From: an uncultured Chloroflexia bacterium
Lineage (GTDB): Bacteria; Chloroflexota; Anaerolineae; Promineifilales; Promineifilaceae
Direction of reading: 5' to 3'
DNA: 64,000 nucleotides
NCBI GenBank assembly: GCA_963767495.1
Contig: CAVYDY010000004.1
Coordinates: 156,985 to 220,984, forward strand
Within the stretch, counting starts at the first letter, position 1. Each line of letters begins with the position of its first letter. A program made the translations under genes and the position numbers. Below the pieces are notes generated by a model, which was given only the letters and a program-made list of their open reading frames with translations, was not told where the DNA came from and made no database searches. Shown one piece after another: positions 1-64,000 of the stretch.

Positions 1-3000
1 ACACTGTTGGAAACACGGCGAGGGGTGTCCGATGCCAGTATCGACCTGATCCCACTCAGCGATGGTCTTCCCGCCGCCGTAATGAGCGAGGGCATACCAC
101 AACTGCTGGACGAAAAACAGATCGCCGCAGGCAATATCTACAACCCGGCCGATCCCACGCTGTGGGACGGTTCACTGGCGACGATCATGTCACTGCCGCT
201 GCATGCGTACGGGGAGACGCTCGGCGCCCTGACCCTGGCGACCACGCGCTCTGATGGCTACGACGCTGAAGATATGAAGGTAGCCAAGACCGTAGCCACC
301 CATCTCGCCCTGGCCATTGAACGCTGGCAGCAAACGGATCGCCTGCGTGATGCCAACCAGGAATCAGCGCGGCTCGCTTCGTTTCCGGAGATGAATCCGC
401 GGCCGATCATTGAATTGGGGCGCGACGGCCGTATTCTCTATCTCAATCCCGCCGGGGAACAGATCATCCCCAACTGCCGCCATGACGGGCTGAACTCGCC
501 GCTGCTCGCTGATTTCGCCTCTATCGTCGATCAGCTGAACAGCAATGACGGGCAGCCGGTCGTCCGCGAAGTTCAGCTTGACCAGGTCTGGTACCAGGAA
601 CTGTTCCATGTCGTCCCCAACAGCGACAGCATCCGCTGCTTCATCACCGATATCAGCGAGCAAAAAAACGCCGAAGAAGCGGCACGACAGCAAAGCGAGT
701 ATCTCAGCGCCCTACACGAAACAACCCTAGGCTTGATCAGCCGCCACGATCTCAATGATCTGCTGCACGCGATCATCAATCGCGCCGGGCAGCTGCTGGG
801 CACTCCGAATGGCTTTGTCTTCCTGCTTGAAGAACAGGACAACGAACTCGAACAGAAAGTAGGCGTCGGCATATTTGAATCGGTGAACGGCTATCGCCTG
901 AAGAAAGGGGACGGCCTTTCCGGCCGCGTATGGGAAACGGAAGAAGCGATTCTTGTCGAGGATTACAACACGTGGGAACATCGCGTGGCCAGTTCCGAAT
1001 TGAGCCTTATTCGCGGGCTGATGGCCGTGCCGCTGCACTCCGCCAACAAAGTAGTAGGCACCATCGGCCTCGCCTATGAGCGGGATTCAGAACTGCAGTT
1101 TGATGAAGCCAAGGTTGAGTTGGTCGGCCGTTTCGCCGAATTAGCCTCCATCGCCCTCGACAATGCGCGCCTCTTCACTGAATCCAAGGAACAAGCGCGC
1201 CGCCTTGGCCTGCTCAACCAGATGGGTCGTGAAATGAACCGCGCCTCAACGCATGAAGAAATCCTGGAAGTAGTCACCACCTATACTCCACAGATAGTCA
1301 GCGCTGACCGCGTCAGCGCCGCCCTGCCCAGCGGCGATGGCGAACATATGCGTCTCTTCGCCGTGGCCGGCGACCACAGCATCCTGCCCGTTGGCGACGA
1401 ACTGCCCATCGACGGCTCGCTAATCGGCCGGGCGGTCCGCGAGAAACAGCTTATCTGTACGCCTGACTTGAGCGACATTGACACGCTTGACGCGCGACAG
1501 CTGTCCGCCCAAGGACTGCGTTCGGCGATCAACGTGCCCATGATCGCCGGCGATCGCGTCGTCGGCGTATTGAACGCCGCCAGCAGCCAGGTTGGCGCCT
1601 ACGGTGAGCGGGACGAAGGGCTGTTGACACAGATCGCCTCGTTCGTTGCTGCGACGGGCGACAATATCCGCCTCATCCTCGATGCGAAGGAAGCGCGCGC
1701 CGCCGCCGAAGCGGCTAATGAAGCGAAGAGCGCCTTCCTGGCCACGATGAGCCATGAAATCCGCACGCCCATGAACGGCGTCATCGGCATGACCAGCCTG
1801 CTGCTGGATACCCAACTCGACGAAGAGCAGCGTGACTACGCGCTCACCGTGCGCAACAGCAGCGACGCCTTGCTGACGATCATCAATGACATTCTCGACT
1901 TCTCCAAGATCGAGGCCGGCAAAATGGATATCGAGATCGCGCCGGTCGATTTGCGCGAGTGTATCGAAAGCGCGCTCGACCTGCTCGTCCCCAAGGCAGC
2001 CGGCAAAGGGCTCGATCTCGCCTACATCATCACCACAAATACGCCCGAACATCTGCAAGGTGATGTCACCCGCCTGCGGCAGATCATCGTCAATCTGTTG
2101 AGCAACTCGGTCAAGTTCACCGAAAAAGGTGAAATCGTCGTCACCGCCAGCGGATCTCCGGTCGAAGAGCAGGCCGCCGGCAACGGGCAAACTTACTTCT
2201 ACCACATCTCCGTACGGGACACCGGCCTGGGGATCCCCGCCGACCGGCTGGACCGCCTCTTCCAATCCTTCAGCCAGGTAGACGCCTCCACCACCCGCCG
2301 CTTTGGCGGCACCGGTCTGGGCCTGGCGATCAGCAAGCGCCTCAGCGAATTGATGGGCGGCACGATGTGGGTAGAAAGCAGCGGCATACCCGGGGAGGGA
2401 TCAACCTTCCATTTCACATTCCGCGCCACCGCTGCTGCGCACCCAGACGAGGACATGCTGCATGAAGAGCTGCCTGCCCTACGCGGCAAACGCCTGCTGT
2501 TCGTGGATGATAATGAAACCAGCCGCCGTATTCTTGCCGCGCAGGCGGAGTCATGGGGGATGAGCTGCCGCGGCAGTGAATTCCCGGCGGAGGCGCTGGG
2601 CTGGATTCAGAGCGGCGAGCAGTTCGACATCGCGATTCTTGATTACCAGATGCCTTTCATGAACGGCGTAGAATTGGCCAACGCCATCCGCCAGGTGCGC
2701 CCCGCCGAAGCGCTGCCACTGGTCATGCTCTCCTCGCAGAGCCGGCGCGAGCTGGATACCGGCGACCTCGATTTTGCCGCCTATCTCACCAAGCCGATCA
2801 AACCTTCCCAGCTGCATGACGCGCTGGTAACGGTCCTTGCCGGCCATTTGAAACGCACGGGACCGGCTCCTCAGAAGTCAGAATTCGACGCACAGTTGGG
2901 AGAACGGCTGCCGCTGACCATTCTGCTGGCCGAAGATAACGCGACCAACCAGAAGCTGGCCATACGCCTGCTCGGCCGTATGGGCTACGACGCTGACATT

Positions 3001-3543
3001 GTGGAGACAGGACTGCAGGCCGTCGAGGCCGTTGCCGCCGGCGCCTACGACGTGGTCTTGATGGATTTGCAGATGCCGCAGATGGACGGCCTTGAGGCGA
3101 CGCGCCAGATTCGCCGCGCGGGCAGCGATCCGCAGCGCCCTTACATTGTGGCTATGACTGCCAATGCAATGGCCGGTGACCGCGAGCGCTGTCTTGCCGC
3201 CGGCATGAACGACTATGTGAGCAAACCGGTGCGCGTCAAAGCGCTGGTTGAAGCCTTGACGCACGCCGGGGAAACGGTACAAGAACAAAACGGCCGTTCA
3301 GCCGAATCGCTCGAGGAGCTGCCGGCGGAGGCGGCGACACCAGCGGCTGCCCCTCCCCCTCCGCCGAGACGCTGGACGTTGACGCGCTCAACAATCTACT
3401 TGACACTGTCGGCGGCGATCTCGAATTTCTCGCCGAGTTGGTCGAGACGCTGCTGGAGGATGCGCCGCTGCTGCTCGCCGACATGCGCCAGGCGGCCCAA
3501 TCCGGCGACGCACCCGCTTTGCGCCTGGCGGCGCATAGTCTAA
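1..3543 (+). CDS. hybrid sensor histidine kinase (GAF-PAS-GAF-GAF-HisKA-HATPase-REC-REC); 5' end lies outside the window and the 3' end is frameshifted away from its Hpt domain
   Basis: The frame is open from nt 1, and the TTG at 7 sits in the middle of a GAF domain. H-box [15 protein letters not shown]; ATP-lid motifs DTGLGI and GGTGLGLAI. Two receiver domains ([21 protein letters not shown] and [21 protein letters not shown]). The last ~60 aa are Arg/Cys/Trp-rich and look out of frame. Confidence 0.9.
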
Positions 3544-3713
3544 AATCCAATAGTGCAGATTTTGGCGCGATGGCCTTGAACGCCTTGTGCAAACAGCTGG
3601 AAATGATGGGAAAGGATAATCAACTGGATGGCGCGCTGCCGCTGATTGACGAGGCGGACGCCGCCTTCGAAGCGGCCAAGCCGGCCCTGTTGGCCCTGAC
3701 TGAGAACAACTAA
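3438..3713 (+). CDS. Hpt (histidine phosphotransfer) domain, the detached C-terminal module of the upstream hybrid kinase
   Basis: [14 protein letters not shown] matches the Hpt phosphohistidine motif. The same frame is open back to 3252. From about 3363 it already reads Hpt-like sequence ([34 protein letters not shown]) with no ATG or GTG start. Confidence 0.85.
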
Positions 3714-3728
3714 CCGCTAGAAAACCTG

Positions 3729-3809: not shown

Positions 3810-5234
3810 ATGGACGAAAAGCAAACCGGTCACATTCTTGTCGCTGATGACAACCGCATGAACCGTATGAAACTTTCGCGCAACCTTGAGCAGCAGGGGC
3901 ACACCGTAGCCACGGCCGAAAACGGTGAAGAGGCGCTGGAAATGATGCTCGACGCGCCGTACGATGTGCTTCTGCTCGACATTCTAATGCCCAAGATGGA
4001 CGGCTACCAGGTATTGGAGAAAATGAAGGATGATGCCACGCTGCGCACCATCCCGGTCATCGTCATCTCCTCGCTCGACGAGATCAACAGCGTTGTGCGC
4101 TGCATCGAAATGGGCGCCGAGGATTATCTACCCAAGCCATTCAACCCGGTCATTCTCAAAGCGCGCCTCGATGCCAGTCTGCGTCGAAAACGGCTGCGCG
4201 ATCTTGAACAGGCGTTTGTGCAGCAGGAAGTAACCCTGCGCCAGAATGAGAAGCTGGCTACACTGGGCAAGCTCAGTGCCGGCATGGCCCACGAGTTGAA
4301 CAACCCCGCCGCGGCCACCAAGCGCGGCGCGGCGCAGCTGCTGGAGCGTTTCGCCGGCATGCAGGCGATCTACCTCAAATTGGGATCGCTTAGTCTCACC
4401 CAGGAGCAGGTCGATACCTTGATTGCGCTGGACCAGAAGGCGAGCGAAAGCGCAAATAATCCAGCCGAGCTCGACGCCCTGGCGCGCAGCGACCGCGAGT
4501 CTGACCTGGAAATCTGGCTTGAGGATAATGGTATTGAAGATCCCTGGGAAGTGGCGCCTAATCTTGTCGACCTCGGCTACACGGAAGCGGAGCTGGGCAG
4601 CCTGGCAGAGCAGTTCACTGCCGATCAGCTGCCCGCTGTTTTCGGCTGGCTGGACAGCACCTTCGCCATCTACGGCCTGCTCGAAGAGGTTGGCGAAGGC
4701 GCCGGCCGCATCTCGGAACTCGTAAAAGCGCTAAAATCGTACAGCTATCTCGATCAGGCGCCGGTACAGATGATCAATGTCCATGAGGGGCTGGACAGCA
4801 CCCTGGTCATTATGCGCAGCAAGTTGAAAGGCAATGTCACGGTCACCCGCGCTTATGATGCTGAAATGCCCTACATTGAGGCGTACGGCAGTGAGCTAAA
4901 CCAGGTATGGACCAATCTGCTGGATAACGCCATCGACGCCGTCAATGAACAGGGCGCGATCGCGATTCGCACTTCATTTGACGACCGCTGGGTAATCGTG
5001 GAGATCGAAGACAATGGGGAAGGCATTCCCGATACGGTCCTGCCCCATATATTTGATCCCTTCTATACGACCAAAGAGCCGGGCAAAGGAACCGGCATGG
5101 GCCTGAATATCAGCCACAATATCGTTGTTCAACAGCACAACGGCCGTTTCGAGGTCCAATCAGAGGCAGGCCAGACCATCTTCACGATCCGCCTGTCCCG
5201 CGAAGGCATAGGCGCCGAGCAGGCGACGGGCTAA
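3810..5234 (+). CDS. response-regulator receiver fused to a histidine kinase (REC-HisKA-HATPase)
   Basis: N-terminal REC (ILVADDNRMNRM..LLLDILMPKMDG..KPF). H-box GMAHELNNPAAA. C-terminal N/G1/G2 boxes (NLLDNAIDA, DNGEGIP, GKGTGMGL). GGAG-type RBS upstream. Confidence 0.9.
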   Translation: MDEKQTGHILVADDNRMNRMKLSRNLEQQGHTVATAENGEEALEMMLDAPYDVLLLDILMPKMDGYQVLEKMKDDATLRTIPVIVISSLDEINSVVRCIEMGAEDYLPKPFNPVILKARLDASLRRKRLRDLEQAFVQQEVTLRQNEKLATLGKLSAGMAHELNNPAAATKRGAAQLLERFAGMQAIYLKLGSLSLTQEQVDTLIALDQKASESANNPAELDALARSDRESDLEIWLEDNGIEDPWEVAPNLVDLGYTEAELGSLAEQFTADQLPAVFGWLDSTFAIYGLLEEVGEGAGRISELVKALKSYSYLDQAPVQMINVHEGLDSTLVIMRSKLKGNVTVTRAYDAEMPYIEAYGSELNQVWTNLLDNAIDAVNEQGAIAIRTSFDDRWVIVEIEDNGEGIPDTVLPHIFDPFYTTKEPGKGTGMGLNISHNIVVQQHNGRFEVQSEAGQTIFTIRLSREGIGAEQATG

Positions 5235-6479: not shown

Positions 6480-7787
6480 ATGCACGATTCTGAACTTATC
6501 ATTGCCCTCTTTCTGCTGATTGCCGCCGTTGTCACCGGTCTGGGATCCAAAATCGGCCGCTGGTACATCAGCATGCCCATGGTCTTCGTCCTGGCCGGCA
6601 TCTTGGTCGGCCCGCGGATGTCAGAAATCCTTTCTGTCTACCCCGCCTCCGACTTCGTCCAGCTACTGGCAGAAGTGACCCTGGCGCTGATTTTGTTCGC
6701 CGACGCTTCGACGTTAAGCCTGCGCGAGGCAAGCGACGATGCCCAGCTGCCCGGGAGGCTGCTGGCCTTCGGCCTGCCGCTGACCATCGTTCTCGGCGGC
6801 ATTGCCGGCAAGATTCTCTACCCTGAGCTTTCGATCGGCTACGCGCTGCTGATCGCCGCCATTCTCGCCCCGACCGACGCAAGCCTCGGCCTGCCCGTCT
6901 ACACAAATCCCAGCATACCTGTCCGTATTCGCCGCGCGTTGAATATCGAGAGCGGCCTCAACGACGGCATCGCCTCTCCTATCGTGCTGCTCTTTCTCGC
7001 GCTCACGCTGAGCGAGGAAGGGATCACGCTCGGCAACTGGCTCAGCGACGCCGCGGTCGAACTCTTCGTGGCCATTCTCGTCGGCCTGGCCATCGGCGTC
7101 GCCGGCGGCAAATTTCTGGAAACGGCCGTTGACCGGCGTTGGACTTCCAGTATGTGGAGCAAACTGGCCATCTTCGCCGTTGCCCTGGCCAGCTATTTCC
7201 TCTCCGTCGCCCTCGGCGGCAACGGCTTCGTCGCCGCTTTCGTCGGCGGCATCTTTTTCGGCCACGCTTCCCATCACAAATTGGCCGAACAAACAGAATT
7301 CACCGAGGCCAACGGCTCACTGCTGGCGATGCTAGTGTGGACCATCTTCGCCGCCATCTTCGTCACGCCGGAACTCCTTGACTACGCTATGAGATTCGAT
7401 GCCAGGGCAATCCTCTACGTCATATTGAGCCTGACTGTCGTGCGCATGCTGCCCGTGGCGATCAGCATGATCGGCAGCGGCCTGCGGCGCGATACCGTGT
7501 TGATCATGGGTTGGTTCGGGCCGCGCGGCCTCGCCTCCGTCGTCTTTGCCGTGCTGGCCGTCGCCAAATTTAGAGAATACGGCCTGGTGCCCGAACCCCT
7601 GGCCACCGTGGTCACCCTGACCATCATGTTCAGCGTTTTCGCCCACGGTTTCTCCGCCCAACCGCTTGTCAACTGGTACGCACGTCGCCTGGAGGAAGCG
7701 GAAGACGGTCATGTGGAACTTGAAGAGATGCCCGAAATGCGGCCCCGTTCCCGGATGTTGACTGCGCAGAAGGATGCGCACAAGTAA
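6480..7787 (+). CDS. cation:proton (Na+/H+) antiporter, CPA1/NhaP-like
   Basis: About 11-12 hydrophobic helices. LAPTDA and ESGLNDG motifs characteristic of Na+/H+ exchanger family proteins. Confidence 0.85.
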   Translation: MHDSELIIALFLLIAAVVTGLGSKIGRWYISMPMVFVLAGILVGPRMSEILSVYPASDFVQLLAEVTLALILFADASTLSLREASDDAQLPGRLLAFGLPLTIVLGGIAGKILYPELSIGYALLIAAILAPTDASLGLPVYTNPSIPVRIRRALNIESGLNDGIASPIVLLFLALTLSEEGITLGNWLSDAAVELFVAILVGLAIGVAGGKFLETAVDRRWTSSMWSKLAIFAVALASYFLSVALGGNGFVAAFVGGIFFGHASHHKLAEQTEFTEANGSLLAMLVWTIFAAIFVTPELLDYAMRFDARAILYVILSLTVVRMLPVAISMIGSGLRRDTVLIMGWFGPRGLASVVFAVLAVAKFREYGLVPEPLATVVTLTIMFSVFAHGFSAQPLVNWYARRLEEAEDGHVELEEMPEMRPRSRMLTAQKDAHK

Positions 7788-11900: not shown

Positions 11901-12471
11901 CTTGAAGATGCCCGCTTTCTCCAGCCTGCCGCAGCTGACCTATTCCTATCTGCACGCCTTAAACGGCAATGAAGAAGAAGCACGGCGTCTGTTTCCGTCC
12001 AGTATCTACTCCCTGACCATCGCCAGGTCCGAACCAATTCTGTTTGGCCTGGCAGTTTCCACGGAACTGCTAATCACCCTCGCTGAAGAAGATTTCGCGG
12101 CGACGCTGAGCGGTGTCGATCAGGCACTGCGTGAGGCCAGGCAGAGCGGCCTGTCACTGCTCATCCCGGAACTGCAAATGATCAAAGCCCGGGCGCTGCA
12201 CGGCTTGAATCGCATCGATGAGGCGGCGCAGCTGCTCGCCGTCGCCGCGGAACATGCGCGCTCTTTTGGCGCGAAGAGGACTTTGCTGCCCATTCTCAGC
12301 CTGCAATCGCAGGTTGAGCAGGAGCAAGGCAATGAGCCTGCCGCAGCCGCCGCCCGGGCGGAAGGCCAGGCAGCAGCTGCCTTTATCGCCGGGCAGATCA
12401 GCGACCCCGATCTGCGCCGCAGCTTCTGGCAGACGGAGACGGCCGTACGGCTGAATGACGGCGCTGCCTGA
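8968..12471 (+). CDS. class III adenylate/guanylate cyclase domain fused to a STAND/AAA NTPase and TPR repeats
   Basis: Cyclase homology domain (ITLLFCDVTGSTAMAE..RLMGDAVLAFFGAP..GINTGPVVVGEIG..YTAMGDAVNLAARME). Walker A LTGEAGLGKSRL at aa ~260. Walker B VMVADDIHWSD. TPR-like C-terminal half. Starts 9 nt after the ZnF-UBP gene. Confidence 0.9.
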   Translation: MADQFTDAPQMPDGYADKLRQAQASRAMQGERRVITLLFCDVTGSTAMAEKLDPEEWAEIMNEAFQYMIAPIYTYEGTVARLMGDAVLAFFGAPIAHEDDPQRAVLAGLDIVTGIEQFAAEIEATYRMAFNVRVGINTGPVVVGEIGPDLAVEYTAMGDAVNLAARMEQTAEPGTVQIAENSYQLVEPFFNVTPLGPLAVKGKAQPVRAYRVDSIAAEPGSLRGLSGLDSPLVGREAELAQLRQIVSALRESERGQIVFLTGEAGLGKSRLIDELHTYWLATRQATPDGWRHWEQMAAVSFEASRPYGMIKHQLRSVCHISDSDTDEQARGKLAHTVSVFPPALQERLNLLYAILLGIGGEESELHPEGENFKRELFDAMLKANRLRAADQPTVMVADDIHWSDPASTEELENLLKLTLDLPILFLAIMRPERDSAAWAMKERVALDYAPQFSEINLRPLSSVESANLVDQLLPIEDMPTAVREMILQRTDGNPFFIEEVIRSLLDSGALQQSAGELHWNPGQSTAQISIPGNVQALLAARIDRLEKDSRHTLQLAAVIGRNFYRRVLDTISDTAAILDEQLRELEALAFIREAARLPEVEYAFRHALTRDAAYATILRRRRRQFHKRVGEAFEALFPDRLEEEAHRLAEHFSEALILDKAQHYYTMAGDHAGRLYANNEAIEHYGKAIRLARDSGTDQQLARLYKRLGRTYEADGHYDNALAMHKEMIALAEQRGAPSLKLQALLSEATIRGTFTDKFDARKGYALSNEALTLARELGDARAESKAYWNLSLLGTYAVQDVHQTIEHGEQAVSIARKHRLREELAYALHDLARPYAMAGRLADGQIALEEAAQLWRELGRSNMVADNRTTLAENLNLQGDLLNGINKCEEALRISRRTSSYWGQAYALATMAPMLLEIGRVDEALAAWDEGLDAAERANFSAPQVYARANLALSYAYLGDLERAFQVTDQAQRVVENLKMPAFSSLPQLTYSYLHALNGNEEEARRLFPSSIYSLTIARSEPILFGLAVSTELLITLAEEDFAATLSGVDQALREARQSGLSLLIPELQMIKARALHGLNRIDEAAQLLAVAAEHARSFGAKRTLLPILSLQSQVEQEQGNEPAAAAARAEGQAAAAFIAGQISDPDLRRSFWQTETAVRLNDGAA

Positions 12472-14149: not shown

Positions 14150-14422
14150 TCAATGACGGCCGTATCGCGCATCTGCCCGCGCCTTCGCCTTCGCCGCCTC
14201 AATCTCACGGTCGCGCGCCGGCGCCTTCGTCACCAGACTGTCCAGCAGCCGCTGCGTCACCTGCGCCACTTCGGAAACCGCCGCTTCAAACGCCGCGTCA
14301 TTCGCCTGCGAAGGAATGCGAAAGCCGCTTACTTTGCGCACATACTGCTGCGCTGCGCCCAGCACTTCCTCTTCCGTTGCCGGCGGATCATAGTTGAACA
14401 AAGTCTTGATATTGCGGCACAT
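14150..14422 (-). CDS. DUF2277 family protein
   Basis: MCRNIKTLFNYDPPATEEEV...REIEAAKAKARA is the characteristic DUF2277 sequence. The track ORF extension up to 14770 is Arg/Gly-rich and not protein-like. Confidence 0.75.
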   Translation of the reverse strand: MCRNIKTLFNYDPPATEEEVLGAAQQYVRKVSGFRIPSQANDAAFEAAVSEVAQVTQRLLDSLVTKAPARDREIEAAKAKARADARYGRH

Positions 14423-47862: not shown

Positions 47863-50349
47863 GTGATGCCAACCCTTGACCGCCGCTACACGCCTTTTCT
47901 GGCTGTCCTCATCTACGCCCTCTTCGCGGCTGCGCTGACCTGGCCCGCGCTGGCCAATCTTGGGTCAGCGATCCCGGGCAATGAGGGAGACGCCTTTGTT
48001 CACTTGTGGACCTATCACTGGGTCAAGGATGTCCTGAGCAGCGGGCAGAGCCTTTTTTTCACTGATCGCCTCTTCTATCCGCAAGGGGTCGCGCTCTACA
48101 CCCATAATTTCGCCTGGATGAATATTGCCATGTGGCTGCCCCTGCAGGCGCTGGTGGGCGGGACAGCCGCCTATACACTGGTCTACTTGTTGGTCCTGGT
48201 CTCTAACGGCACGGCCGTCTATTTACTGGTGCGCCACCTGGCAGCCTTCGAGCCGGCCGCTTTCCTGGCCGGCTTCATCGTCACCGGTTGGCCGTACATC
48301 ATCACCCGCTTCAGCCAGCCCAATCTGATTTTCATCGCCTTTGTGCCTTTGGCGCTGCTGGCGATGCACCGTCTGACGCTGAGCAGACGCTGGATCGATG
48401 CGCTCTGGTTGGGGCTGGCCGTGGCCGGTATCGGCATCAGCCGCTACCAGATGCTGATCATGAGCGCACCACTGCTGCTGCTGGCGGCATTCTACTGGCT
48501 GTGGGAAGGGCCAGACGAAACGAGGCGCCGCTCCTTTTTTCAGCTGCTGGCTGCCGCCGCGTTGGCGCTGCTGCTGTTGGCGCCCTTCGCCGGGCCGGTC
48601 ATCCGCTTCCAGATGACGCGCGAATTCGCCGGCGATATTCTGCGCGATGAGGCGCAGTGGGGCGAAGCGGACCTATTGGGCTACTTCTTGCCCGGACTGG
48701 GCATGCCGCTGCTTGGTACGCTGGCGGCCGAGCGCTTTCCAGATATCTTGACGCACACGCCAATCGGTCTGATCACCCTGACCCTGGCCATCCTGGGCCT
48801 CTTCGCCCCAAGACGTGACAAATGGCTGTGGGTGAGTATGGCCCTGCTGCTTCTGCTGCTGGCGCTGGGCCGCGTGCTGACGGTCAATGGCCAGGTGCTG
48901 AACCCCCTGCCCTATGCATGGCTGGAAGACAATCTCTTCATCGTTCAGCTGATCCGCTATCCATCCCGCTTCTCGGCGCTGCTGGCGATCCCCATCGCGG
49001 TACTCGCCGGTTACGGTGTGCTGCTGCTTGGCAAGCTGTTATCCATGCGGGCGACCTGGGCAGCGACAACCGTCCTGGCCATCCTGATCGCCCTGGGCTA
49101 TCGCGTGCCTGAATACCCGCTGCTGCCTCTGGAAACACCGGCCTGGTATGAAACGCTGGCCGAAGAACCAGGCACATTCGGTCTGGCCACAATTCCCTTC
49201 ACGCGTACTTTTGACGAGTTCGCCATGACTTACCAGCTGACGCATCAAAAACCGCTGGTCGCCGGGCATGTCTCCCGCCCGCCGCGCGAAGCGTATGATT
49301 TCATCAATGAAACGCCGTTTCTGACGGGGCTGCGCGAACGCTCACCTGTACCGCCGCCGAGTGATGATATTTCCGGACAGTTACGACCGTTGGCGGCGAA
49401 CAATCTGCCCTACCTGGTCATTCACAAACGTTTCCTCCCGCCGGAGCAGACCAGCCAGTGGCGGCGCTGGATGGGCATCGCGCCATTCCATGAAGATGAG
49501 GATCTGCTGGTCTATCCTACCGCGCTGCAGGCCGGGGTAGATTATCGCGTGGAAGAGACGGCCGTGCCGGGCCTCGCCTATGTAGCGGGGCAACTTCATC
49601 CTAACTCGATCGGCATCGGCGACCCACTAAACGGTGTCACCCATTGGTCAGTCGGGGCGGAAACGATGCGCGACTGGACCGCCTGTTACGAGCTGCGAGA
49701 CGCCGCGGGAAATTCAGTTGAAGAAATCTGCCAGCCGCTGCAGTTTCCGGCGCAAAGCGGGAACGGCCAGCAGCTGGTAAGCGCTCCTTTCAGAATCGCC
49801 CTGGCGCGTTCCCCCAGCCAGGGAACCTACCAGGTCAGTGTGCGCCTGCCGGCGGGAGGTAGTCAGGACAGTAGGCGTTTCGAGATTGGTCCACTTTATG
49901 TAACCAGCGAGGGACGCCAGTTTAGCAGCCCCACGCCTGAAACATCAGCGGCCATATCCTTGGGAACGACGGTGGCGCTGGTTGGCTATGACGGGCCGCG
50001 CCTGGGCAATCAGAGCCTCGACCTAACGCTGTTCTGGCAGGCGGTCGAGGAAATGGACATCTCCTATAAGTTCTACGTGCATCTCTTCGACAGTGAGAGC
50101 GGCGAACTGGCAGCACAGGTGGACACTGTACCCCGCGATTGGACCTACCCCACCAATGTGTGGCATGCCGGGGAATATGTGAGCGACCGCTTATCGCTGC
50201 CCTTGTCGGCCCTGCCGCCGGGCACCTACCGTGTCGAAGCAGGCATCTACCATCCGGATACCGGCGAACGGCTGCCGGCGATTGGTGCGGACAGCGTACC
50301 GCTGCCAAACAGTTCGATTCCTTTGGGCGAGGTGACCGTAGGGAAATAG
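47863..50349 (+). CDS. large polytopic membrane protein with extracytoplasmic C-terminal domain (possible GT-C-type glycosyltransferase)
   Basis: About 13 hydrophobic helices in the first 430 aa, then a ~400-aa soluble domain. There is no motif I can name with confidence. Confidence 0.6.
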   Translation: MMPTLDRRYTPFLAVLIYALFAAALTWPALANLGSAIPGNEGDAFVHLWTYHWVKDVLSSGQSLFFTDRLFYPQGVALYTHNFAWMNIAMWLPLQALVGGTAAYTLVYLLVLVSNGTAVYLLVRHLAAFEPAAFLAGFIVTGWPYIITRFSQPNLIFIAFVPLALLAMHRLTLSRRWIDALWLGLAVAGIGISRYQMLIMSAPLLLLAAFYWLWEGPDETRRRSFFQLLAAAALALLLLAPFAGPVIRFQMTREFAGDILRDEAQWGEADLLGYFLPGLGMPLLGTLAAERFPDILTHTPIGLITLTLAILGLFAPRRDKWLWVSMALLLLLLALGRVLTVNGQVLNPLPYAWLEDNLFIVQLIRYPSRFSALLAIPIAVLAGYGVLLLGKLLSMRATWAATTVLAILIALGYRVPEYPLLPLETPAWYETLAEEPGTFGLATIPFTRTFDEFAMTYQLTHQKPLVAGHVSRPPREAYDFINETPFLTGLRERSPVPPPSDDISGQLRPLAANNLPYLVIHKRFLPPEQTSQWRRWMGIAPFHEDEDLLVYPTALQAGVDYRVEETAVPGLAYVAGQLHPNSIGIGDPLNGVTHWSVGAETMRDWTACYELRDAAGNSVEEICQPLQFPAQSGNGQQLVSAPFRIALARSPSQGTYQVSVRLPAGGSQDSRRFEIGPLYVTSEGRQFSSPTPETSAAISLGTTVALVGYDGPRLGNQSLDLTLFWQAVEEMDISYKFYVHLFDSESGELAAQVDTVPRDWTYPTNVWHAGEYVSDRLSLPLSALPPGTYRVEAGIYHPDTGERLPAIGADSVPLPNSSIPLGEVTVGK

Positions 50350-52050: not shown

Positions 52051-53226
52051 CTACTGTTCGCTCTCCGCCGGCAGCAGCAGCCCGGCCAGGAAGGCGATGA
52101 TGGCCAGGACAGCCGTCAACTGCAGGGCCAATGCCAGTCCTATTTGATCAGCTGCATAGCCAACAAGCAAAACACCCAGGGAACCGCTGAAGAACATGAA
52201 GCCAAGGGCGAGTCCCGAGGCCATCGCGCGTTGTCCGGGCAGCAACTGCTGAACCATCAAGACCAGGACACTGTGTGGCATGCCAACAAAGAAACCGGCG
52301 GCAAGCAGCAGCGCCAGACGAATGACGTCGGTCGCATCGATGTAGAGGACCACGGGGATGATCGCGGCAGCGGCGGCGATCAGAATCACGACACGGCCGT
52401 TCCAGCGATCAGCCAGTATGCCGCCGGCAACGCCGCCCAGCGCAGAGCCAAGCATGAAGATACCTGACATGAGCCCAACATAGCTGGCGCTGTATCCTAG
52501 TTCCGTGAACAGTTTCGGAGCAAAGGTGATCGCGGAGAGGCTGATCGTGCTGGTACATAAGATAATGATGCTGAGCAGCAGCGCCCGGCGATAAGGCAGG
52601 CGACTCTGACTTTGCGGCGCGCTTGCTCCCTCACCCGGCCCGGCGGCCGGTTCGGCGACCTGATAATCGGCAGTCAACCATTTCCAGGCGCTGATCGTGG
52701 CCGTGAAGGCGGCCAGTGGCAGAATCACGTAGGCGGTCCGGCCGAAGTTCTCTAGTAGGATGCCGGCCGCTACCGGCCCGACGAATAGACCGAGCTGCCC
52801 CGCCATGAAGAATATCGACGTGGCCTGGGTTCGATGCGCAGCACTGGCCTGGCTGGCAACCATGGTGCCGGTTGGGTGAAAGGCGCCAGATCCTAGACCG
52901 GCCACCGTTAGGGCGGCCAGAGCCGGCCAAGGAGGTAACAGCGCCGCTGCGGCATAGAAGAAGACCATCCAACTGACGCCGCCGATAACCGGCCAGCGTG
53001 GACCGATGCGGTCGGCCAGACGGCCGAACAACGGCTGTGACAGCGCGTTGCCCACATTGTAAAGCAGGAGGACGATGGCGACCTGCACATTGCTGAGGCC
53101 AATAAGGAGGGCCAGGATGGCGACCAGCAGCGAACGGCTGCTGTTGAGGACATCAACGAAGAAATGTCCGTAGGCAACCGCCTGGTATTCTCGATTCTGC
53201 AGGTAGCTTGCTTCTGTTACAGCCAC
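52051..53226 (-). CDS. MFS transporter
   Basis: 12 predicted helices. An MFS loop 2-3 motif appears as GRLADRIGPR. Confidence 0.85.
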   Translation of the reverse strand: MAVTEASYLQNREYQAVAYGHFFVDVLNSSRSLLVAILALLIGLSNVQVAIVLLLYNVGNALSQPLFGRLADRIGPRWPVIGGVSWMVFFYAAAALLPPWPALAALTVAGLGSGAFHPTGTMVASQASAAHRTQATSIFFMAGQLGLFVGPVAAGILLENFGRTAYVILPLAAFTATISAWKWLTADYQVAEPAAGPGEGASAPQSQSRLPYRRALLLSIIILCTSTISLSAITFAPKLFTELGYSASYVGLMSGIFMLGSALGGVAGGILADRWNGRVVILIAAAAAIIPVVLYIDATDVIRLALLLAAGFFVGMPHSVLVLMVQQLLPGQRAMASGLALGFMFFSGSLGVLLVGYAADQIGLALALQLTAVLAIIAFLAGLLLPAESEQ

Positions 53227-53249: not shown

Positions 53250-54545
53250 CTAATCCGCGCTGCGGGCCTGATTAACGGCCGTTTCGCTGCGCGCCACATT
53301 GAAATAGTAAAAGAGGCCCCAGATGACGGTCACGATTAGTGAGGTGATTGCGGAAAAAACCGTTACTTGGCGCGCATCGAAGCCTGCCGAATCCATCAGA
53401 TGACCGGCGACGTAGATGGAGATTGACTGCGTCAGCGTCAGTGCGGCGAATTCGAACGCGAAAACACGACCACGGAAACGATCGGGAACGATCATCTGCA
53501 AGAGTGCCGCCGAAAAGACCCATATTGTCCCTGACCCGAGGGTGCGCAGCATGGCCATCAGTAAGAAAACGGCGAGAGTGGGCGCCAGGCTCAAGCCATA
53601 GATGCCTGCCGTCAAGGAAATGAACCCGAGTAGAATACCGAGCATCAGCTTCCTTGGTGCGTCGCCAAGCCAGCGGCGCATGAATATCGGGCCCAAGCCC
53701 GTCCCCAAACCGGTGACAAAATAGATGACGCCCAAGGTCGCCGCGCCTGTCGCCGCCAGATTCAGGCGCCGCCCTACCCCGGCAAGGTCATTTTCGAAGT
53801 ATTCGTTGGCGTAGGTCACCTCCAATACGTTGATCGCCCCCCAGGCAAGCGAGCCGCCCGCTTTGGCCAAGCTGATCACAAAGATGAACTTCTCAGAACG
53901 CAGGTAGCGCATGCCATCAATGAACTGCAACCAGCCACCGGACGCTTGATCAGGGAAGCGTTCCCGCTGCGGTAAGACGATGCGCGAAATGAAGAAGGCA
54001 GACAACAGGAAGGTCAGCGCGTCGGCCACAAAAGCGGTTTCAATGCCGAATATGGCCGCCACTGCCCCACCGGCAAAAGCGCCCAGGGCTAACATCGTGC
54101 TCCAGGTAAATGAGTCGAGCGCGTTCGCTGTGACCAGATCCTCTTTGTCCACGATATTGGCGATAACGGCCGATTTCGCCGGCGTGAAGAGCGCGCTGAG
54201 TGTGAACTGAAAGAAGGTAAGGACGTAGAAGAGCCATATCTGGTCGGGGGAGCGAATAAGCAAGAAAGACAAGACTGTCGCCGCGCGCAAGAGATCGGTC
54301 AGGATCATAATACTGCGCCGGTTAAAGCGGTCGGCAAGGACGCCGGCTACGGGACTGAATAAGAAAAGGGGCAAAAAGCGCAGTAGAAAAAGCGTACTGA
54401 CTGCCAGGCCACTGTCCGTTAGACGGGTAATAAGCTCAGCGGAGGCGATGAGGTTAAACCAGTCGCCCAGATATGAGACGACGCTGCCTAACCAGAGGTT
54501 GCGATAATTAGAATTGTGACGAAGAAGAGTGATGTATTCGCGCAT
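53250..54545 (-). CDS. MFS transporter
   Basis: 12 predicted helices. An MFS motif appears as GVLADRFNRR. Confidence 0.85.
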   Translation of the reverse strand: MREYITLLRHNSNYRNLWLGSVVSYLGDWFNLIASAELITRLTDSGLAVSTLFLLRFLPLFLFSPVAGVLADRFNRRSIMILTDLLRAATVLSFLLIRSPDQIWLFYVLTFFQFTLSALFTPAKSAVIANIVDKEDLVTANALDSFTWSTMLALGAFAGGAVAAIFGIETAFVADALTFLLSAFFISRIVLPQRERFPDQASGGWLQFIDGMRYLRSEKFIFVISLAKAGGSLAWGAINVLEVTYANEYFENDLAGVGRRLNLAATGAATLGVIYFVTGLGTGLGPIFMRRWLGDAPRKLMLGILLGFISLTAGIYGLSLAPTLAVFLLMAMLRTLGSGTIWVFSAALLQMIVPDRFRGRVFAFEFAALTLTQSISIYVAGHLMDSAGFDARQVTVFSAITSLIVTVIWGLFYYFNVARSETAVNQARSAD

Positions 54546-58191: not shown

Positions 58192-58208
58192 TTTTAAGGT
58201 TGGTAAGG

Positions 58209-58452: not shown

Positions 58453-59957
<1,505 letters not shown>

Positions 59958-60030
59958 AAAGTTTGTATCCGTTCGTTTTACGGAACTATTTTAAAAATTG
60001 ACTTGTTTGACACAAGAATTGCTATTCGAT

Positions 60031-60251: not shown

Positions 60252-61061
60252 GTATTTCATTTGGCATTAAAAAACGGCTCCGGTTGGAACCGCCCACCTA
60301 ATGTCTGAAATGTATTGTGCGGCTTCGCGCATCGCTAACGGCACATGTTTTTAAACAACGATGGGAAGTATAGCCATCGCATATGGGCCTGTCAACTATC
60401 TGAGAATCGCTCTCATAAAAGGATCTAATCCTTGCGCAGGGGGTGAAAACAAAGGGGGAAACGGCCGTTCTTGCACCCCGGCCGCTGACCCTTCCTCTAT
60501 TGTAGATCGCCATAGTTCGCGCCCCTGCAGGCAGAGCCATCTCCTGGTTAGCCGGACGGCAGCCAGTTCAGGCAGCGCCTGGAGTCCCCCTACCCTACCA
60601 CCGGAATGATCGCAGCTGGGATCGGCAGCAGAGAGCCGGCACCCCATACGGCCACTTCCGGGCGACTTACATCCCCCCTTGGCTACGCCCTGTGCAGCAC
60701 GGCAAACTTTGCGTCTCTGCGGGCAGCGCGATTGCGCAGGCGGACGGCTGTACAGACAATATGAGCGGTACGCACTTCCTTACCAAAGGCGCGCCCCCAA
60801 CAGCACAGTTTTGCCGGTCGCGCAGATCCATCATCGACCTAACTGCCCACGTACGCCAGTCCACAGCCCAGATCCCCGCCAGGCATTTCCCATAGAACGG
60901 CCGAAACAGCCGTTTTGCATAGCAGATGCATTTCGCCGTTTAGCGGGAGCACAGCAGCCAGCCTCCCCCGAAAACAACGACGCAGCAGGCTCCCTTCTTA
61001 TAATAGGAAAGCTGCTGCAGCCGTTTCGCAGTAGACCACAGCTTAATTCTGATCAATATAC

Positions 61062-62565: not shown

Positions 62566-62665
62566 AACTTATCCCCACGGCGCCAGCAGGCGCTGATTAT
62601 CTTCCATGTAATGGCTAGATTGTAACAACGATAGCGTTTCAATACAAGCCGAGCCCATTAGATCG

Positions 62666-62694
62666 TTGACATCGCCATTCTATTCTGCTAGACT
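62666..62694 (+). promoter_or_regulatory. near-consensus sigma-70 promoter pointing right
   Basis: TTGACA (62666-62671), 17-nt spacer, TAGACT (62689-62694), within an AT-rich intergenic region. Confidence 0.4.
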
Positions 62695-63231
62695 GCCGAT
62701 TATGGTATAAATCTGGCAATATAGGCATATAGATGCTATATTTTCACAATGTATAGCCTATTATGAAGCTGGCATTCGCGAAGAAACGGTTCAAAAAGCA
62801 TTGATTTAGCCGCTATGAAGATCAGTGGAGTGATGATTATTGGAAGCGCAGCAGGGGAGAATGGCACCCCTGGCGTGAGGTCAACGAAGAAATGGCGACG
62901 GCCGCCTGAGTCGCGCGGCCGTTATTGCGCCTGCTAAGGGCGCTAGAAAAGACAACGGCCAGACGCCGCCACGTCTGGCCTACATTCATACACCCGTAAG
63001 CTATACCTCTGCTTATGTGCCGCCAACACGAAAAACAGAGCCCCTTCATTGGGGAGGGGGAATTTGTATCCCTTTTGCATAGCTCACTAGCTAGGTATGA
63101 GCATAACACAGCCGATCTACGATGTCAACCAGGCAGTAAGGACATTATCGGGCTGTTAACGGAGCAGACTTCGGCCGCCGCCAATGGCCGTAGATGCTCC
63201 TGTTATGTCTACCTGAAAGAGTGGCAACGCT

Positions 63232-64000
63232 TTGAAAGAGAAGCAGCCAGCGGCCGACCGCCATCGGATCCTGGCGGATGCACAGCAGCTATTGATGGCC
63301 CGGCGCGCCGCACTGCGCCAGGCCAGGAAAGGGAGCAATATCTCCCCGACGTTCGCTGATCCCGGCCGCTCCCCCCACCCTGAACCAGACAAATCCAATC
63401 GGACAACTTCGCTCGCTGAACTGGCCGCGGCAGTCGACAGCCTTCCTCCCCATTTGGGCTGGGGCAGCAAGGCACAAACGGCTGTCTTGCGCGCCGCAGC
63501 ACGGCGGCGCCGCAGCACACCATCGCCGGCCGATGAGAAGCCGGCCTGGTCAACGCCTACAGCACCATGCCCACCGAGAGCCAACGCACCGGACGAGCGC
63601 AGCGAGTCCAACTTCTCCGCCGACGGCCGTATTTCTCTGGCGCCGTCGCTGGGACTGGCCATTCTGCGCCACAATCAGGCGGCTGCAGCCCGCTTGTGGC
63701 TGCTGCTGCGCGCCCTTGATCAACAGGGGCGGGGCGCGATCTCCCGCGAACACGCACACAGCGCCTTCACGGACAAAACATCGGCGCTGCACATCTGCGG
63801 ACGCCGCCATCTGCGCAACCTGCTCAACGCCGGCAGCGGACTTTTCTGGGAAGTGGACGACAGGATGATCTGGCTGCGATCGGCTGTGCATGTGGCGCGT
63901 TCACTCGGCGTTGCTCATTTTCGCGGCCAGGACGTGGCCCTACCGGTCAAGGCGCTCACCGGCGGCATTGGCGCCGTGCGCGCTAACCTATTCGCCAGCT
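63232..64000 (+). CDS. hypothetical protein, 3'-truncated by the window end (not in the supplied ORF track); start uncertain (TTG 63232 or ATG 63295)
   Basis: The frame with codons starting at 63232, 63235 and so on is open from 63217 to nt 63999. It reads ..ISLAPSLGLAILRHNQAAAARLWLLLRALDQQGRGAISREHAHSAFTDKTSALHICGRRHLRNLLNAGSGLFWEVDDRMIWLRSAVHVARSLGVAHFRGQDVALPVKALTGGIGAVRANLFAS. The C-terminal half is protein-like and the N-terminal half is low-complexity. Confidence 0.5.
   Translation, partial: MKEKQPAADRHRILADAQQLLMARRAALRQARKGSNISPTFADPGRSPHPEPDKSNRTTSLAELAAAVDSLPPHLGWGSKAQTAVLRAAARRRRSTPSPADEKPAWSTPTAPCPPRANAPDERSESNFSADGRISLAPSLGLAILRHNQAAAARLWLLLRALDQQGRGAISREHAHSAFTDKTSALHICGRRHLRNLLNAGSGLFWEVDDRMIWLRSAVHVARSLGVAHFRGQDVALPVKALTGGIGAVRANLFAS

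Follow-up and report, generated by a model that had tools for sequence, protein, structure and literature searches.

An HIP1-like 8-bp palindrome, ACGGCCGT, in a Promineifilaceae-centred lineage of the Chloroflexota

In a Promineifilaceae genome (Chloroflexota), judging from a 64-kb stretch of a MAG (hereafter the window), the 8-bp palindrome ACGGCCGT is about 25-fold commoner than expected by chance, and it is preserved base for base in relatives even where proteins are altered as a result, so that it looks like a counterpart of the cyanobacterial palindrome HIP1. Every HIP property that could be tested here was found: over-representation under composition, Markov and codon-aware models, occurrence in every codon phase as well as outside coding sequence, origin by base substitution with no conserved flanks, one-base deviations at the first and last base, restriction to a lineage, derivative forms with the same core in relatives, and positional conservation far above that of control palindromes. 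This bears out the resemblance to HIP1, built on a CGGCCG core of EagI type, that had been proposed from the sequence alone. [quoted passage not shown] Our literature search found no account of ACGGCCGT or CGGCCG as an HIP; the motif is apparently an undescribed, non-cyanobacterial counterpart of this long-unexplained repeat, and would add to the HIP kind its first member outside the cyanobacteria. We consider it very likely that ACGGCCGT is a true selected HIP-type element, while the complete reading, an HIP of this lineage acting as a DNA-level signal, seems to us probable on balance.

Abundance of ACGGCCGT and its core in the window

Exact k-mer counting found 39 copies (Table 1), where the sequence-only reading had claimed at least 38, and all eight positions that it had given as examples were among them. 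This corresponds to 6 copies per 10 kb and makes ACGGCCGT the commonest palindromic 8-mer of the window, followed by CGCCGGCG with 20 copies, and the second commonest of all 8-mers. Base composition predicts 1.6 copies and dinucleotide-preserving shuffles gave 1.27 ± 1.30 (maximum 6, n = 100). The Markov comparison suggested by the earlier reading gave a divided answer: the excess stood against the order-3 and order-5 expectations (3.6 and 14.5), but the maximal-order ratio of 39/29.9 (1.3) is unimpressive when taken alone, which is because the constituent 7-mers ACGGCCG (58) and CGGCCGT (65) consist mostly of motif copies. Gaps between copies were near random at this scale, with a coefficient of variation of 0.73–1.16.

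The CGGCCG core was found 126 times versus 36 expected, and within these cores the two outer flanks were still associated with each other (odds ratio 3.3, p = 0.0014). One-base variants were frequent, as had been noted, with 45 at positions 1 and 8 compared to 31 for all internal positions; enrichment was limited to these two outer positions and internal variants were near expectation. Beyond the 8 bp, bases were weakly biased towards (A)(A/G)ACGGCCGT(T/C)(T), in agreement with the earlier remark that the flanks are not conserved.

Table 1 The 39 copies of ACGGCCGT in the window. Asp/Asn/Tyr-Gly-Arg is read as NAC-GGC-CGT, Thr-Ala-Val as ACG-GCC-GTN and X-Arg-Pro-X as NNA-CGG-CCG-TNN; L numbers denote related loci.
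Position	Gene or region (coordinates, strand)	Peptide	Remarks
425..432	GAF/histidine-kinase/receiver (1-3543 +)	Asp-Gly-Arg	
3290..3297	GAF/histidine-kinase/receiver (1-3543 +)	Asn-Gly-Arg	
5140..5147	receiver/HATPase (3810-5234 +)	Asn-Gly-Arg	
7122..7129	Na/H exchanger (6480-7787 +)	Thr-Ala-Val	
12439..12446	adenylate-cyclase/AAA/TPR (8968-12471 +)	Thr-Ala-Val	3' end of gene
14156..14163	DNA without a secure gene call		non-coding or unassigned
15106..15113	amine-oxidase-like (14569-15561 -)	Asp-Gly-Arg	
17094..17101	P-type ATPase (15666-17120 -)	Asp-Gly-Arg	within overlap with upstream frameshifted fragment
18718..18725	metal-sensitive repressor (18639-19034 -)	Thr-Ala-Val	
19559..19566	hypothetical (19105-19614 -)	Thr-Ala-Val	
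21146..21153	amidohydrolase (20143-21189 +)	Asp-Gly-Arg	
22858..22865	1809-aa kinase/STAND/WD40 (22606-28035 +)	Thr-Ala-Val	
24156..24163	1809-aa kinase/STAND/WD40 (22606-28035 +)	Lys-Arg-Pro-Ser	
28349..28356	arginase family (28222-29097 -)	Thr-Ala-Val	
29570..29577	cysS (29203-30579 -)	Thr-Ala-Val	motif at same aligned position in L027, L028, L038, L048
30088..30095	cysS (29203-30579 -)	Tyr-Gly-Arg	Tyr-Gly-Tyr in most orthologues; same change in L039
31146..31153	intergenic gap 30998-31167		
31658..31665	DUF4332 (31168-31875 -)	Thr-Ala-Val	conserved in L085
32350..32357	dapF (31942-32790 -)	Asn-Gly-Arg	
32455..32462	dapF (31942-32790 -)	Asp-Gly-Arg	ACGACCGT in L084
33733..33740	VWA (33123-34304 +)	Tyr-Gly-Arg	conserved in L084, ACGGCCAT in L085
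35351..35358	trypsin-like protease (34552-35388 -)	Thr-Ala-Val	
38399..38406	GHMP kinase (38354-39532 +)	Thr-Ala-Val	
39629..39636	nucleotidyl-transferase (39529-40266 +)	Asp-Gly-Arg	
39814..39821	nucleotidyl-transferase (39529-40266 +)	Thr-Ala-Val	
40576..40583	class II fructose-bisphosphate aldolase (40432-41511 +)	Thr-Ala-Val	conserved in L084, L085
42107..42114	DNA-alkylation-repair (41711-42394 +)	Thr-Ala-Val	conserved in L084, TCGGCCGT in L085
43826..43833	ketopantoate reductase (43560-44483 +)	Leu-Arg-Pro-Phe	
46592..46599	fasciclin (46444-47541 +)	Asp-Gly-Arg	
46928..46935	fasciclin (46444-47541 +)	Asn-Gly-Arg	
47150..47157	fasciclin (46444-47541 +)	Asp-Gly-Arg	conserved in L085
47173..47180	fasciclin (46444-47541 +)	Thr-Ala-Val	23 bp after 47150 copy
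48211..48218	828-aa PMT_2-like membrane protein (47863-50349 +)	Thr-Ala-Val	
49558..49565	828-aa PMT_2-like membrane protein (47863-50349 +)	Thr-Ala-Val	conserved in L084
51134..51141	APH phosphotransferase fragment (51048-51632 +)	Lys-Arg-Pro-Ser	
52393..52400	MFS transporter (52051-53226 -)	Asn-Gly-Arg	
53275..53282	MFS transporter (53250-54545 -)	Thr-Ala-Val	
60461..60468	upstream of rRNA operon (16S gene ends at 59958)		non-coding
63623..63630	~50 bp from tRNA-Arg (63496-63571 -)		ORF 63232-63999 + doubtful, so copy may be non-coding

Lineage restriction and positional conservation

Relatives were analysed as 21-kb samples of each genome, numbered as L loci. About 15 related loci carried ACGGCCGT at 6–18 copies per 10 kb. 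It was the top palindrome, at this density, in L027, L028, L037–L039, L048, L058, L060, L084–L087 and L211, where it reached 33–95 times the base-composition expectation (72–95 times in the dense loci). It was absent from about 60 other Anaerolineae and outgroup loci. The motif is thus restricted to one lineage within the Chloroflexota, centred on the Promineifilaceae; protein relatives of the window carry the names Promineifilaceae and Ca. Leptofilum. The CGGCCG core is the invariant part and the outer bases are lineage-specific: most genomes have A..T, a single one has T..A and some have none, with AA/TT or C/G as further outer extensions in other genomes. L088 contained 40 copies of TCGGCCGA and zero of ACGGCCGT, and in L047, L049 and L209 only CGGCCG was enriched (5–10x), with no flank preference.

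Across aligned relatives, 68–78% of ACGGCCGT sites were found at identical positions, compared to 0–30% for control palindromes. Conserved sites amounted to 67/89 versus 7/67 for control palindromes of 75% GC, and to a fraction of 0.16 for any 75%-GC 8-mer in the same comparison; between L086 and L087, which share 75% identity, 21 of 31 sites were conserved versus 0 of 16 controls. The conserved island was exactly 8 bp long, with an identity of 0.84–0.94 inside and 0.70–0.77 in the flanks. In most genomes of the lineage the exact 8-mer is kept in place by purifying selection that overrides the choice of codons and in some cases of amino acids. The earlier reading had suggested following motif positions into related genomes. 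In the window's own lineage only 7/28 sites (~25%) were shared with relatives at 75% identity, which is 2–3 times background, and many gains and losses indicated site turnover. The window genome is a weak, possibly decaying, HIP representative.

Proposed mechanism and competing explanations

By analogy with HIP1, CGGCCG would be recognised by a DNA methyltransferase resident in the cell, probably an orphan one, or by another dimeric protein. A process biased towards this core would generate its raw excess, and a second reader would select the complete 8-mer, which would label DNA as native during uptake, recombination or repair. The comparisons show that new copies originate in situ through point substitutions, whatever the reading frame, and also in non-coding DNA. 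A function as a methylation-linked self-DNA tag is suggested by the same analogy, and we put it forward as a tentative possibility. Motif scans of the window and of the 21-kb related loci found no DNA methyltransferase, and we know of no documented natural competence in these uncultured bacteria. A probable integrated element in L087 (7 kb from the integrase onward) carried 0 copies versus ~15 expected. Some plasmid- or phage-like IMG/VR contigs were richer in the motif than chromosomes, which fits mimicry of a self-tag and, equally, contigs that have long been resident and exposed to the mutational bias of the host.

An alternative explanation is that ACGGCCGT is bound by a dimeric protein that is abundant and either nucleoid-associated or chromosome-organising, which is the structural role that Xu et al. 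put forward for HIP1. The conserved exact 8-mer, a palindrome with lineage-variable outer positions as a co-evolving dimeric reader predicts, and the 10–90 kb periodicity of HIP1 (PMC5861425) all agree with such a site. However, local spacing was near random in our 64-kb and 21-kb stretches, which are too short for periodicity, no candidate protein is known, and EMSA in cyanobacteria found no HIP1-binding complex (cited in 10.64898/2026.06.24.733823), and we regard this role as unlikely.

The excess could also be a functionless by-product of biased mutation or repair, for example of CGGCCG methylation combined with repair, by the very-short-patch or the mismatch pathway, in which near-matches are turned into matches, along the lines of Elhai's ratchet model for HIP1 (PMC4390886). 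As continual replenishment predicts, CGGCCG sites in the three core-only genomes were not positionally conserved (7/48 versus a baseline of 0.10), and the turnover in the window lineage points in the same direction. A replenishing neutral process does not, however, predict that the full 8-mer is kept so far above flanks and control palindromes or as a sharp 8-bp island, an argument made previously for conservation and selection of HIP1 (PMC5861425). Moreover, no depletion of the transition neighbours of CGGCCG was found, so that there is no Dcm/Vsr-like sequence signature. We consider a pure by-product quite improbable, and a selected HIP-type element remains our preferred reading.

Codon phases and encoded peptides

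Based on the gene calls made in the present analysis, 36 copies lie within genes, which are found on both strands, and the other 3 in non-coding DNA, consistent with the first description. All three codon phases were observed (17 ACG-GCC-GTN, 16 NAC-GGC-CGT and 3 NNA-CGG-CCG-TNN), one more than the minimum claimed earlier. ACGGCCGT is not a peptide, RNA or mobile-repeat signal, and the sequence-only reading had rightly set aside both a motif at the protein level and a dispersed mobile element. Codon usage or a favoured peptide (Thr-Ala-Val or Asp-Gly-Arg) is refuted as the source of the excess, since shuffling synonymous codons, with all proteins and the codon usage of individual genes left unchanged, lifts the expectation from 1.6 to 6.1 ± 2.3 (maximum 17, n = 1000) versus 37 copies observed in coding sequence, the same DNA word is obtained from two unrelated peptides, a third phase and non-coding copies, and motif-bearing sequences span 47–62% GC. 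Nothing beyond the repetition itself speaks for a REP/MITE-like dispersed mobile repeat or for an artefact of assembly or sequencing, and both are likewise refuted, by flanks without similarity, by in-frame copies inside conserved genes with no indels compared to orthologues, and by identical positions in MAGs that come from separate projects and were built with different assemblers (SPAdes NODE_, MEGAHIT k141_, long-read contig_ and JGI records).

The motif has distorted proteins, in which Thr-Ala-Val and Asp/Asn/Tyr-Gly-Arg are 2–3.5 times too frequent. Thr-Ala-Val was found 26 times in the window versus 7.6 expected, with 18 of the 26 encoded by ACGGCCGTN (4.5 expected from codon usage), and Asp/Asn/His/Tyr-Gly-Arg 22 times versus 10.4 expected, with 16 of the 22 motif-encoded (~1 expected). 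This inflation was confined to the residue order that encodes the motif, and the pressure behind the excess acts on DNA, not on peptides. In cysS, the window and L039 have each independently replaced the near-universal Tyr-Gly-Tyr by Tyr-Gly-Arg, and Thr-Pro-Gln/Glu has given way to Thr-Ala-Val in L037 and L039.

Abundance and codon placement of ACGGCCGT

In the window (57.6% G+C), we counted 39 exact copies of ACGGCCGT; a sequence-only reading had reported at least 38 and quoted coordinates for eight, all of which are among the 39. ACGGCCGT led the palindromic 8-mers (next, CGCCGGCG with 20 copies); of all 8-mers, only AACGGCCG/CGGCCGTT, a word that overlaps it, was commoner. Markov models predicted 1.6 (order 0), 2.1 (order 2), 3.6 (order 3), 5.2 (order 4), 14.5 (order 5) and 29.9 copies (maximal order), and 100 dinucleotide-preserving shuffles contained 1.27 ± 1.30 copies, with a maximum of 6. 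The climb in expectation at high order is circular, because the 7-mers ACGGCCG (58) and CGGCCGT (65) are mostly the motif and because the core CGGCCG is itself enriched 3.5-fold (126 vs 36). The maximal-order model, whose 7-mers are dominated by the motif itself, was therefore dropped as a test; in its place we used Markov models of lower order, shuffles that preserve codons, and a test for association between the two flanks. The claimed excess over a naive expectation persisted under each kind of model, at 24-fold (order 0), 11-fold (order 3) and 6-fold (codon-preserving shuffles). Among copies of the core, a preceding A and a following T were associated (39/19/26/42, odds ratio 3.3, p = 0.0014), and the palindromic 8-mer is therefore a unit. 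Density was 1.10 copies per kb in DNA that aligned to relatives and 0.52 per kb elsewhere (p = 0.025), a contrast given no weight here because relatives were sampled for part of the window only.

By composition, TGATCA was the most over-represented palindromic hexamer of the window (40 vs 10.7 expected); it was likewise high in L013 and L077, two unrelated loci. TGGCCA was enriched 2.5- to 4-fold in many loci, motif-bearing and motif-free alike.

Codon placement was assessed on our own gene calls, 45 genes identified by a codon-usage score trained on Pfam-supported genes. Copies of ACGGCCGT lay on both strands, 36/39 of them in genes, where they were read as ACG-GCC-GTN (Thr-Ala-Val; 17 copies), NAC-GGC-CGT (Asp/Asn/Tyr-Gly-Arg; 16 copies) or NNA-CGG-CCG-TNN (3 copies); the remaining 3 were non-coding. 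The earlier statement that copies occur on both strands, in at least two codon phases and in non-coding DNA can thus be extended to all three phases. When synonymous codons were shuffled 1000 times within each gene, leaving proteins and per-gene codon usage unchanged, 6.1 ± 2.3 copies were obtained (maximum 17), compared to 37 observed in coding sequence, in agreement with the view that ACGGCCGT is not a protein motif.

The proteins themselves are distorted, which is evidence that here the DNA shapes the protein. Thr-Ala-Val occurred 26 times in the window proteins vs 7.6 expected from composition, while its five permutations occurred 5–11 times each, and 18 of the 26 were encoded by ACGGCCGTN (4.5 expected from codon usage). 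Similarly, [DNHY]-Gly-Arg was found 22 times vs 10.4 expected, and 16 of these were motif-encoded vs about 1 expected. In cysS, a Tyr-Gly-Tyr shared by 48 of about 70 other orthologues is replaced by Tyr-Gly-Arg (TAC-GGC-CGT) in the window; the same change arose independently in L039, a locus of a related genome, and Thr-Pro-Gln/Glu became Thr-Ala-Val in both L039 and the related L037. The distorted proteins and the cysS replacements exclude an origin in peptides or codon usage, which the codon shuffles also rule out, and show that the motif spread by substitution.

A dispersed repeat of the REP or MITE type was rejected as well. The flanks of ACGGCCGT are only weakly biased (A at −2, A/G at −1, T/C at +1, T at +2), which excludes a longer mobile repeat, and 36/39 copies are genic. 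As the sequence-only reading had supposed, the copies do not behave as mobile DNA: they align without gaps to motif-less orthologues (e.g. Tyr-Gly-Tyr to Tyr-Gly-Arg).

Motif states and site conservation among relatives

Relatives were sampled as 21-kb loci around the cysS or VWA gene, not as genomes, and are named as by their submitters. ACGGCCGT is a trait of a lineage, and five motif states were found in these samples. A single-gene cysS tree was considered as proof of one motif-bearing clade and set aside, since its deep branches are too poorly resolved for more than descriptive use.

Motif states among the sampled loci
State	Loci	Occurrence
Strong ACGGCCGT	L028, L037, L038, L039, L048, L086 (Ca. 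Leptofilum, 6.36-Mb contig), L087, L211	11–18 per 10 kb
Weaker ACGGCCGT	window, L027 (47% GC), L084, L085, L058, L060, L212	3–9 per 10 kb
TCGGCCGA in place of ACGGCCGT	L088	40 TCGGCCGA (within TTCGGCCGAA), zero ACGGCCGT
Core only	L047, L049, L209	CGGCCG enriched 5–10x, no flank preference
None	~60 other Anaerolineae, Caldilineae, Thermoflexales, Ardenticatenaceae-labelled and outgroup loci; L210	0–2 ACGGCCGT

ACGGCCGT was the top palindrome in 13 related loci, exceeding the base-composition expectation 33- to 95-fold in the relatives (72- to 95-fold in dense loci). Pooling 309 kb of ACGGCCGT-type loci gave 358 copies vs 9.3 expected at order 2. Under the same order of model, the ratio for CGGCCG was 0.55 in motif-free relatives, compared to an over-representation of 1.9- to 3.2-fold in motif lineages. 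One-base variants were enriched solely at positions 1 and 8 in the pooled loci (TCGGCCGT 5.5-fold, GCGGCCGT 2.5-fold), while internal variants stood at 0.2–1.7 times expectation; near-variants at the first base had also been called frequent in the sequence-only reading of the window. The octamer is further extended to AA..TT in the group of L028, L038, L048 and L086, and to C..G, with GG at −3/−4, in L037 and L039. L088, which bears TCGGCCGA, had unrelated sequence at the four places where it could be aligned to ACGGCCGT sites in L086 and L087. The core-only state may be a precursor or a relic of the 8-mer.

Positional conservation was measured by comparing motif sites to control sequences in blastn-aligned stretches of related loci. 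Motif sites were conserved at 20/26 in L037–L039 (85% identity), 21/27 in L028–L048 (80%), 13/19 in L028–L038 (77%) and 13/17 in L038–L048 (77%), or 67/89 (0.75) in these four pairs, of which those among L028, L038 and L048 are mutually non-independent. Controls were conserved much less (one-base variants 0.30; other 75%-GC palindromic octamers 7/67, i.e. 0.10; any 75%-GC octamer 0.16; Fisher p = 1e-16). The independent pair L086–L087 (75% identity) gave 21/31 (0.68), compared to 0.12 for one-base variants and 0/16 (0.00) for control palindromes, with a baseline of 0.11. The same order, motif above one-off variants above controls, has been reported for the cyanobacterial palindrome HIP1, GCGATCGC (PMC5861425). 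Identity per base was 0.84–0.94 at exactly the eight motif positions vs 0.70–0.77 in the 20 bases on each side, the drop beginning at the bases directly adjoining the motif; with so sharp an island, the sites do not simply lie within conserved protein segments. One cysS site was common to the window, L027, L028, L038 and L048 at ~70% nucleotide identity. Overall, these comparisons show selection for the exact 8-mer in the majority of genomes in the lineage. In core-only genomes, CGGCCG sites had no positional conservation (7/48 vs 0.10 in L047–L049).

The window itself is a weaker case. Compared to its closest available relatives, L084 and L085 (~75% identity), it shared 4/15 and 3/13 sites (0.23–0.27; controls 0.09–0.12), and many of its sites differed from theirs by several bases. 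The 8-bp island was shallow (0.76 vs 0.66–0.72 in the flanks) and motif density was one third of that in strong genomes. The motif is real in the window but under weaker constraint, or decaying, there.

Mobile DNA and candidate mechanisms

Putative mobile DNA included both motif-free and motif-dense stretches. All 31 ACGGCCGT copies of L087 lie before position 14214, and the motif-free 7 kb that follow (coordinates in the table below) are probably a recently integrated element. In the window, the transposase and antirepressor-like genes are both devoid of the motif, although only ~1 copy would be expected in the two together. The antirepressor-like gene, flanked by panE and a gene for a short-chain dehydrogenase, is absent from the syntenic L084 and L085; a similar gene occurs on the motif-dense IMG/VR contig L106. 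This contig (UViG 3300033417_000002, 49 ACGGCCGT in 13.2 kb) was recovered, together with L154 (3300048592_001391, 47 in 13.2 kb) and L089 (3300037515_000543, 44 in 14.7 kb), by scanning IMG/VR for two ACGGCCGT copies 9–39 bp apart. Their 30–37 copies per 10 kb are about twice the density of chromosomal loci, a comparison that is qualitative only because the scan favours dense contigs. L106 encodes ParA, RadC, a P22-type antirepressor, a lytic transglycosylase (SLT) and an FtsK/SpoIIIE ATPase, and L154 encodes ParB and a DndC-like PAPS reductase. The three contigs resemble plasmids, conjugative elements or phages that would belong to these hosts.

The motif is shown to be a DNA-level palindromic word made by substitution, with a constant hexamer core and lineage-specific outer bases. 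Its origin could involve two layers. A bias directed at the core would make CGGCCG common, as seen alone in L047, L049 and L209, and a reader of the full 8-mer would then give each site a value that preserves it. The core is the EagI/XmaIII site, and by analogy with HIP1 a resident methyltransferase probably acts on it. No C5 or N4/N6 methyltransferase motif was matched when the window and the motif-rich chromosomal loci were scanned with regular expressions. Three matches in viral loci were not methyltransferases on inspection, and an N6_Mtase-like protein of L154 was discarded as its catalytic motif is absent.

As to what is selected, we tentatively propose, on the analogy of HIP1, that the motif lets native DNA be recognised when DNA is taken up, recombined or repaired. 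ACGGCCGT resembles the DUS of Neisseria and the USS of Pasteurellaceae, which are short words present about once per kb, spread by substitution within genes, distort proteins and form lineage-specific dialects. DUS/USS are also scarce in recently acquired DNA; here, the integrase island of L087 had no copy, but some plasmid- or phage-like contigs were very dense in the motif. Unlike ACGGCCGT, DUS/USS are non-palindromic. Their recognition by competence proteins is known, in bacteria whose competence has been demonstrated; the host here is uncultured, and competence genes were absent from the 64-kb window. That the palindrome would instead be a binding site structuring the nucleoid appears less likely, as local spacing was near random (gap coefficient of variation 0.73–1.16); the quasi-periodicity expected of a highly iterated palindrome, at 10–90 kb, is a matter of whole chromosomes.

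Still less probable is a functionless by-product of repair. Such a process would fit the core-only genomes, and it has a model in Dcm/Vsr acting on E. coli CCWGG, where biased repair makes a methyltransferase target over-represented and which would be a plausible source of CGGCCG excess. However, it does not fit the sharp 8-bp conservation. Unlike with Dcm/Vsr, the excess is much larger, two extra bases are under selection and the deamination product is not depleted: we found no deamination or very-short-patch footprint, with observed/expected ratios of 0.8–1.3 for CGGCCA, CAGCCG and CGACCG in motif-bearing loci, not below those in motif-free relatives.

Relation to HIP1 and genomic context

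The likeness to HIP1 suggested by the sequence-only reading was borne out for every sequence-level feature of a highly iterated palindrome (HIP) that was tested, including an excess of at least 15-fold over composition that was robust to Markov and codon-aware models. Both words are GC-rich palindromic octamers with about one copy per 0.5–2 kb. They exceed expectation by tens of times, occur in every reading frame as well as in non-coding DNA, and spread by substitution. Both deviate at the first or last base, leaving a constant hexamer core (CGATCG in HIP1, CGGCCG here), carry palindromic extensions specific to lineages, and are conserved more than one-off variants, which in turn exceed control palindromes (PMC4390886, PMC5861425). 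ACGGCCGT differs in sequence, core and phylum (Chloroflexota), and it has no internal GATC, so that a Dam-type methylase cannot be involved. In cyanobacteria, the cognate methyltransferases of HIP1 are DmtA and DmtC, the latter methylating the internal CGATCG. Methylated HIP1 increases natural transformation 60- to 100-fold (10.1101/2024.09.10.611283), an effect from which a proposed role as uptake signal followed (10.64898/2026.06.24.733823).

Alternate or derivative HIPs of cyanobacteria (TCGATCGA, GGGATCCC, CAGGCCTG and GGCGCC-based words) are accompanied by matching methyltransferases (PMC4390886). Similar to these, related genomes here swap the dominant palindrome while keeping its behaviour, and the cyanobacterial pair GCGATCGC/TCGATCGA, with one core and different flanks, is mirrored by ACGGCCGT/TCGGCCGA. 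Unlike the derivatives, the TCGGCCGA genome lacks its motif where ACGGCCGT genomes have theirs (at few aligned positions), and for the core-only state we found no cyanobacterial counterpart in the HIP literature. That literature, as surveyed, concerns cyanobacteria only, with Chloroflexi also mentioned in one Synechocystis methylome study, and HIPs are still described as peculiar to cyanobacteria in a 2026 preprint (10.64898/2026.06.24.733823). Our literature search on over-representation or methylation of ACGGCCGT or CGGCCG, and on palindromes of Anaerolineae or Promineifilaceae, returned nothing relevant. With the tested HIP features present and no prior description found, ACGGCCGT is, as far as we can tell, the first HIP outside cyanobacteria.

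Another phylum would then have a HIP of its own, unrelated to HIP1. The function of HIP1, which to our knowledge has been studied in cyanobacteria only, has been open since 1993. The relatives sampled here range from motif-free loci through core-only ones and weak or strong 8-mers to an 8-mer with swapped flanks, an independent natural experiment, and it is this series within a single clade that makes the finding useful. A broader reading, which we consider speculative and rather doubtful, is that HIPs are a general, independently evolved bacterial "genome watermark", kept here by a writer and reader pair for CGGCCG at thousands of selected sites per genome, switching flanks and being mimicked by plasmids and phages. 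The outer-base specificity would then have been switched between lineages (ACGGCCGT, TCGGCCGA, core only), and resident plasmids and phages would copy the mark to pass as self. If the watermark is true, phylogenetic profiling across the graded states of this one clade would make it possible to find the responsible genes, which is not known to have been feasible for HIP1 in 30 years, and genes tracking motif state should reveal the writer and reader proteins. Methylation calls in existing long-read metagenomes could directly test the link to methylation. As a strong compositional marker, the motif could also help to bin these filaments, which are abundant in activated sludge and soil, to assign plasmids and phages to them and to spot recently acquired DNA in them.

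Coordinates of features in the window and in two loci of related genomes
Sequence	Position	Strand	Feature	Observation
Window	8968–12471		Adenylate-cyclase/AAA/TPR protein, 1167 aa	1 ACGGCCGT copy, under window average
Window	18139–17084	−	P-type heavy-metal ATPase gene, one of two ORFs	
Window	17120–15666	−	Same gene, other ORF	
Window	17084–17141		Split of the ATPase gene (minus strand)	One G short in run expected GGGGG
Window	17141–17132		One-off site tACGGCCGGGG	Overlapped by the G run
Window	22606–28035		BTAD/kinase/STAND/WD40 protein, 1809 aa	2 ACGGCCGT copies, under window average
Window	36958–38166	−	IS4-type DDE transposase gene	No ACGGCCGT
Window	44568–45362	+	P22-antirepressor-like gene (P22_AR_N and ORF6C)	No ACGGCCGT
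Window	51048–52012		APH-family phosphotransferase gene	Split into two ORFs
Window	51630–51634		Overlapping TGATG	Meeting point of the two ORFs
Window	54639–59958	−	Complete rRNA operon (16S, tRNA-Ile, tRNA-Ala, 23S, 5S)	Zero ACGGCCGT, ~3 expected at window average; largest motif-free gap
L087	14300–21245		Phage-type integrase, then ParA-like gene	0 ACGGCCGT, about 15 expected
L088	1–21200		GCA_023954475.1, JAMLHW010000008.1	CGGCCGAA 58x, both strands, giving TTCGGCCGAA

The split P-type ATPase gene is a pseudogene or the result of a sequencing error in the homopolymer, and the phosphotransferase gene has either suffered a frameshift or a nonsense change or is genuinely split. The window also carries a tRNA-Arg gene. 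Its gene content is typical of filamentous Chloroflexota, with GAF histidine kinases in addition to the two large multidomain proteins listed in the table. NCBI places Promineifilaceae in the Chloroflexota, order Promineifilales. The window had no match in the E. coli genome. Among species-representative genomes, the best matches of cysS were Anaerolineae MAGs (identity up to 72%), and the nearest named relatives of the window VWA protein were "Candidatus Promineifilaceae bacterium" (86%) and "Candidatus Leptofilum sp." (67%).
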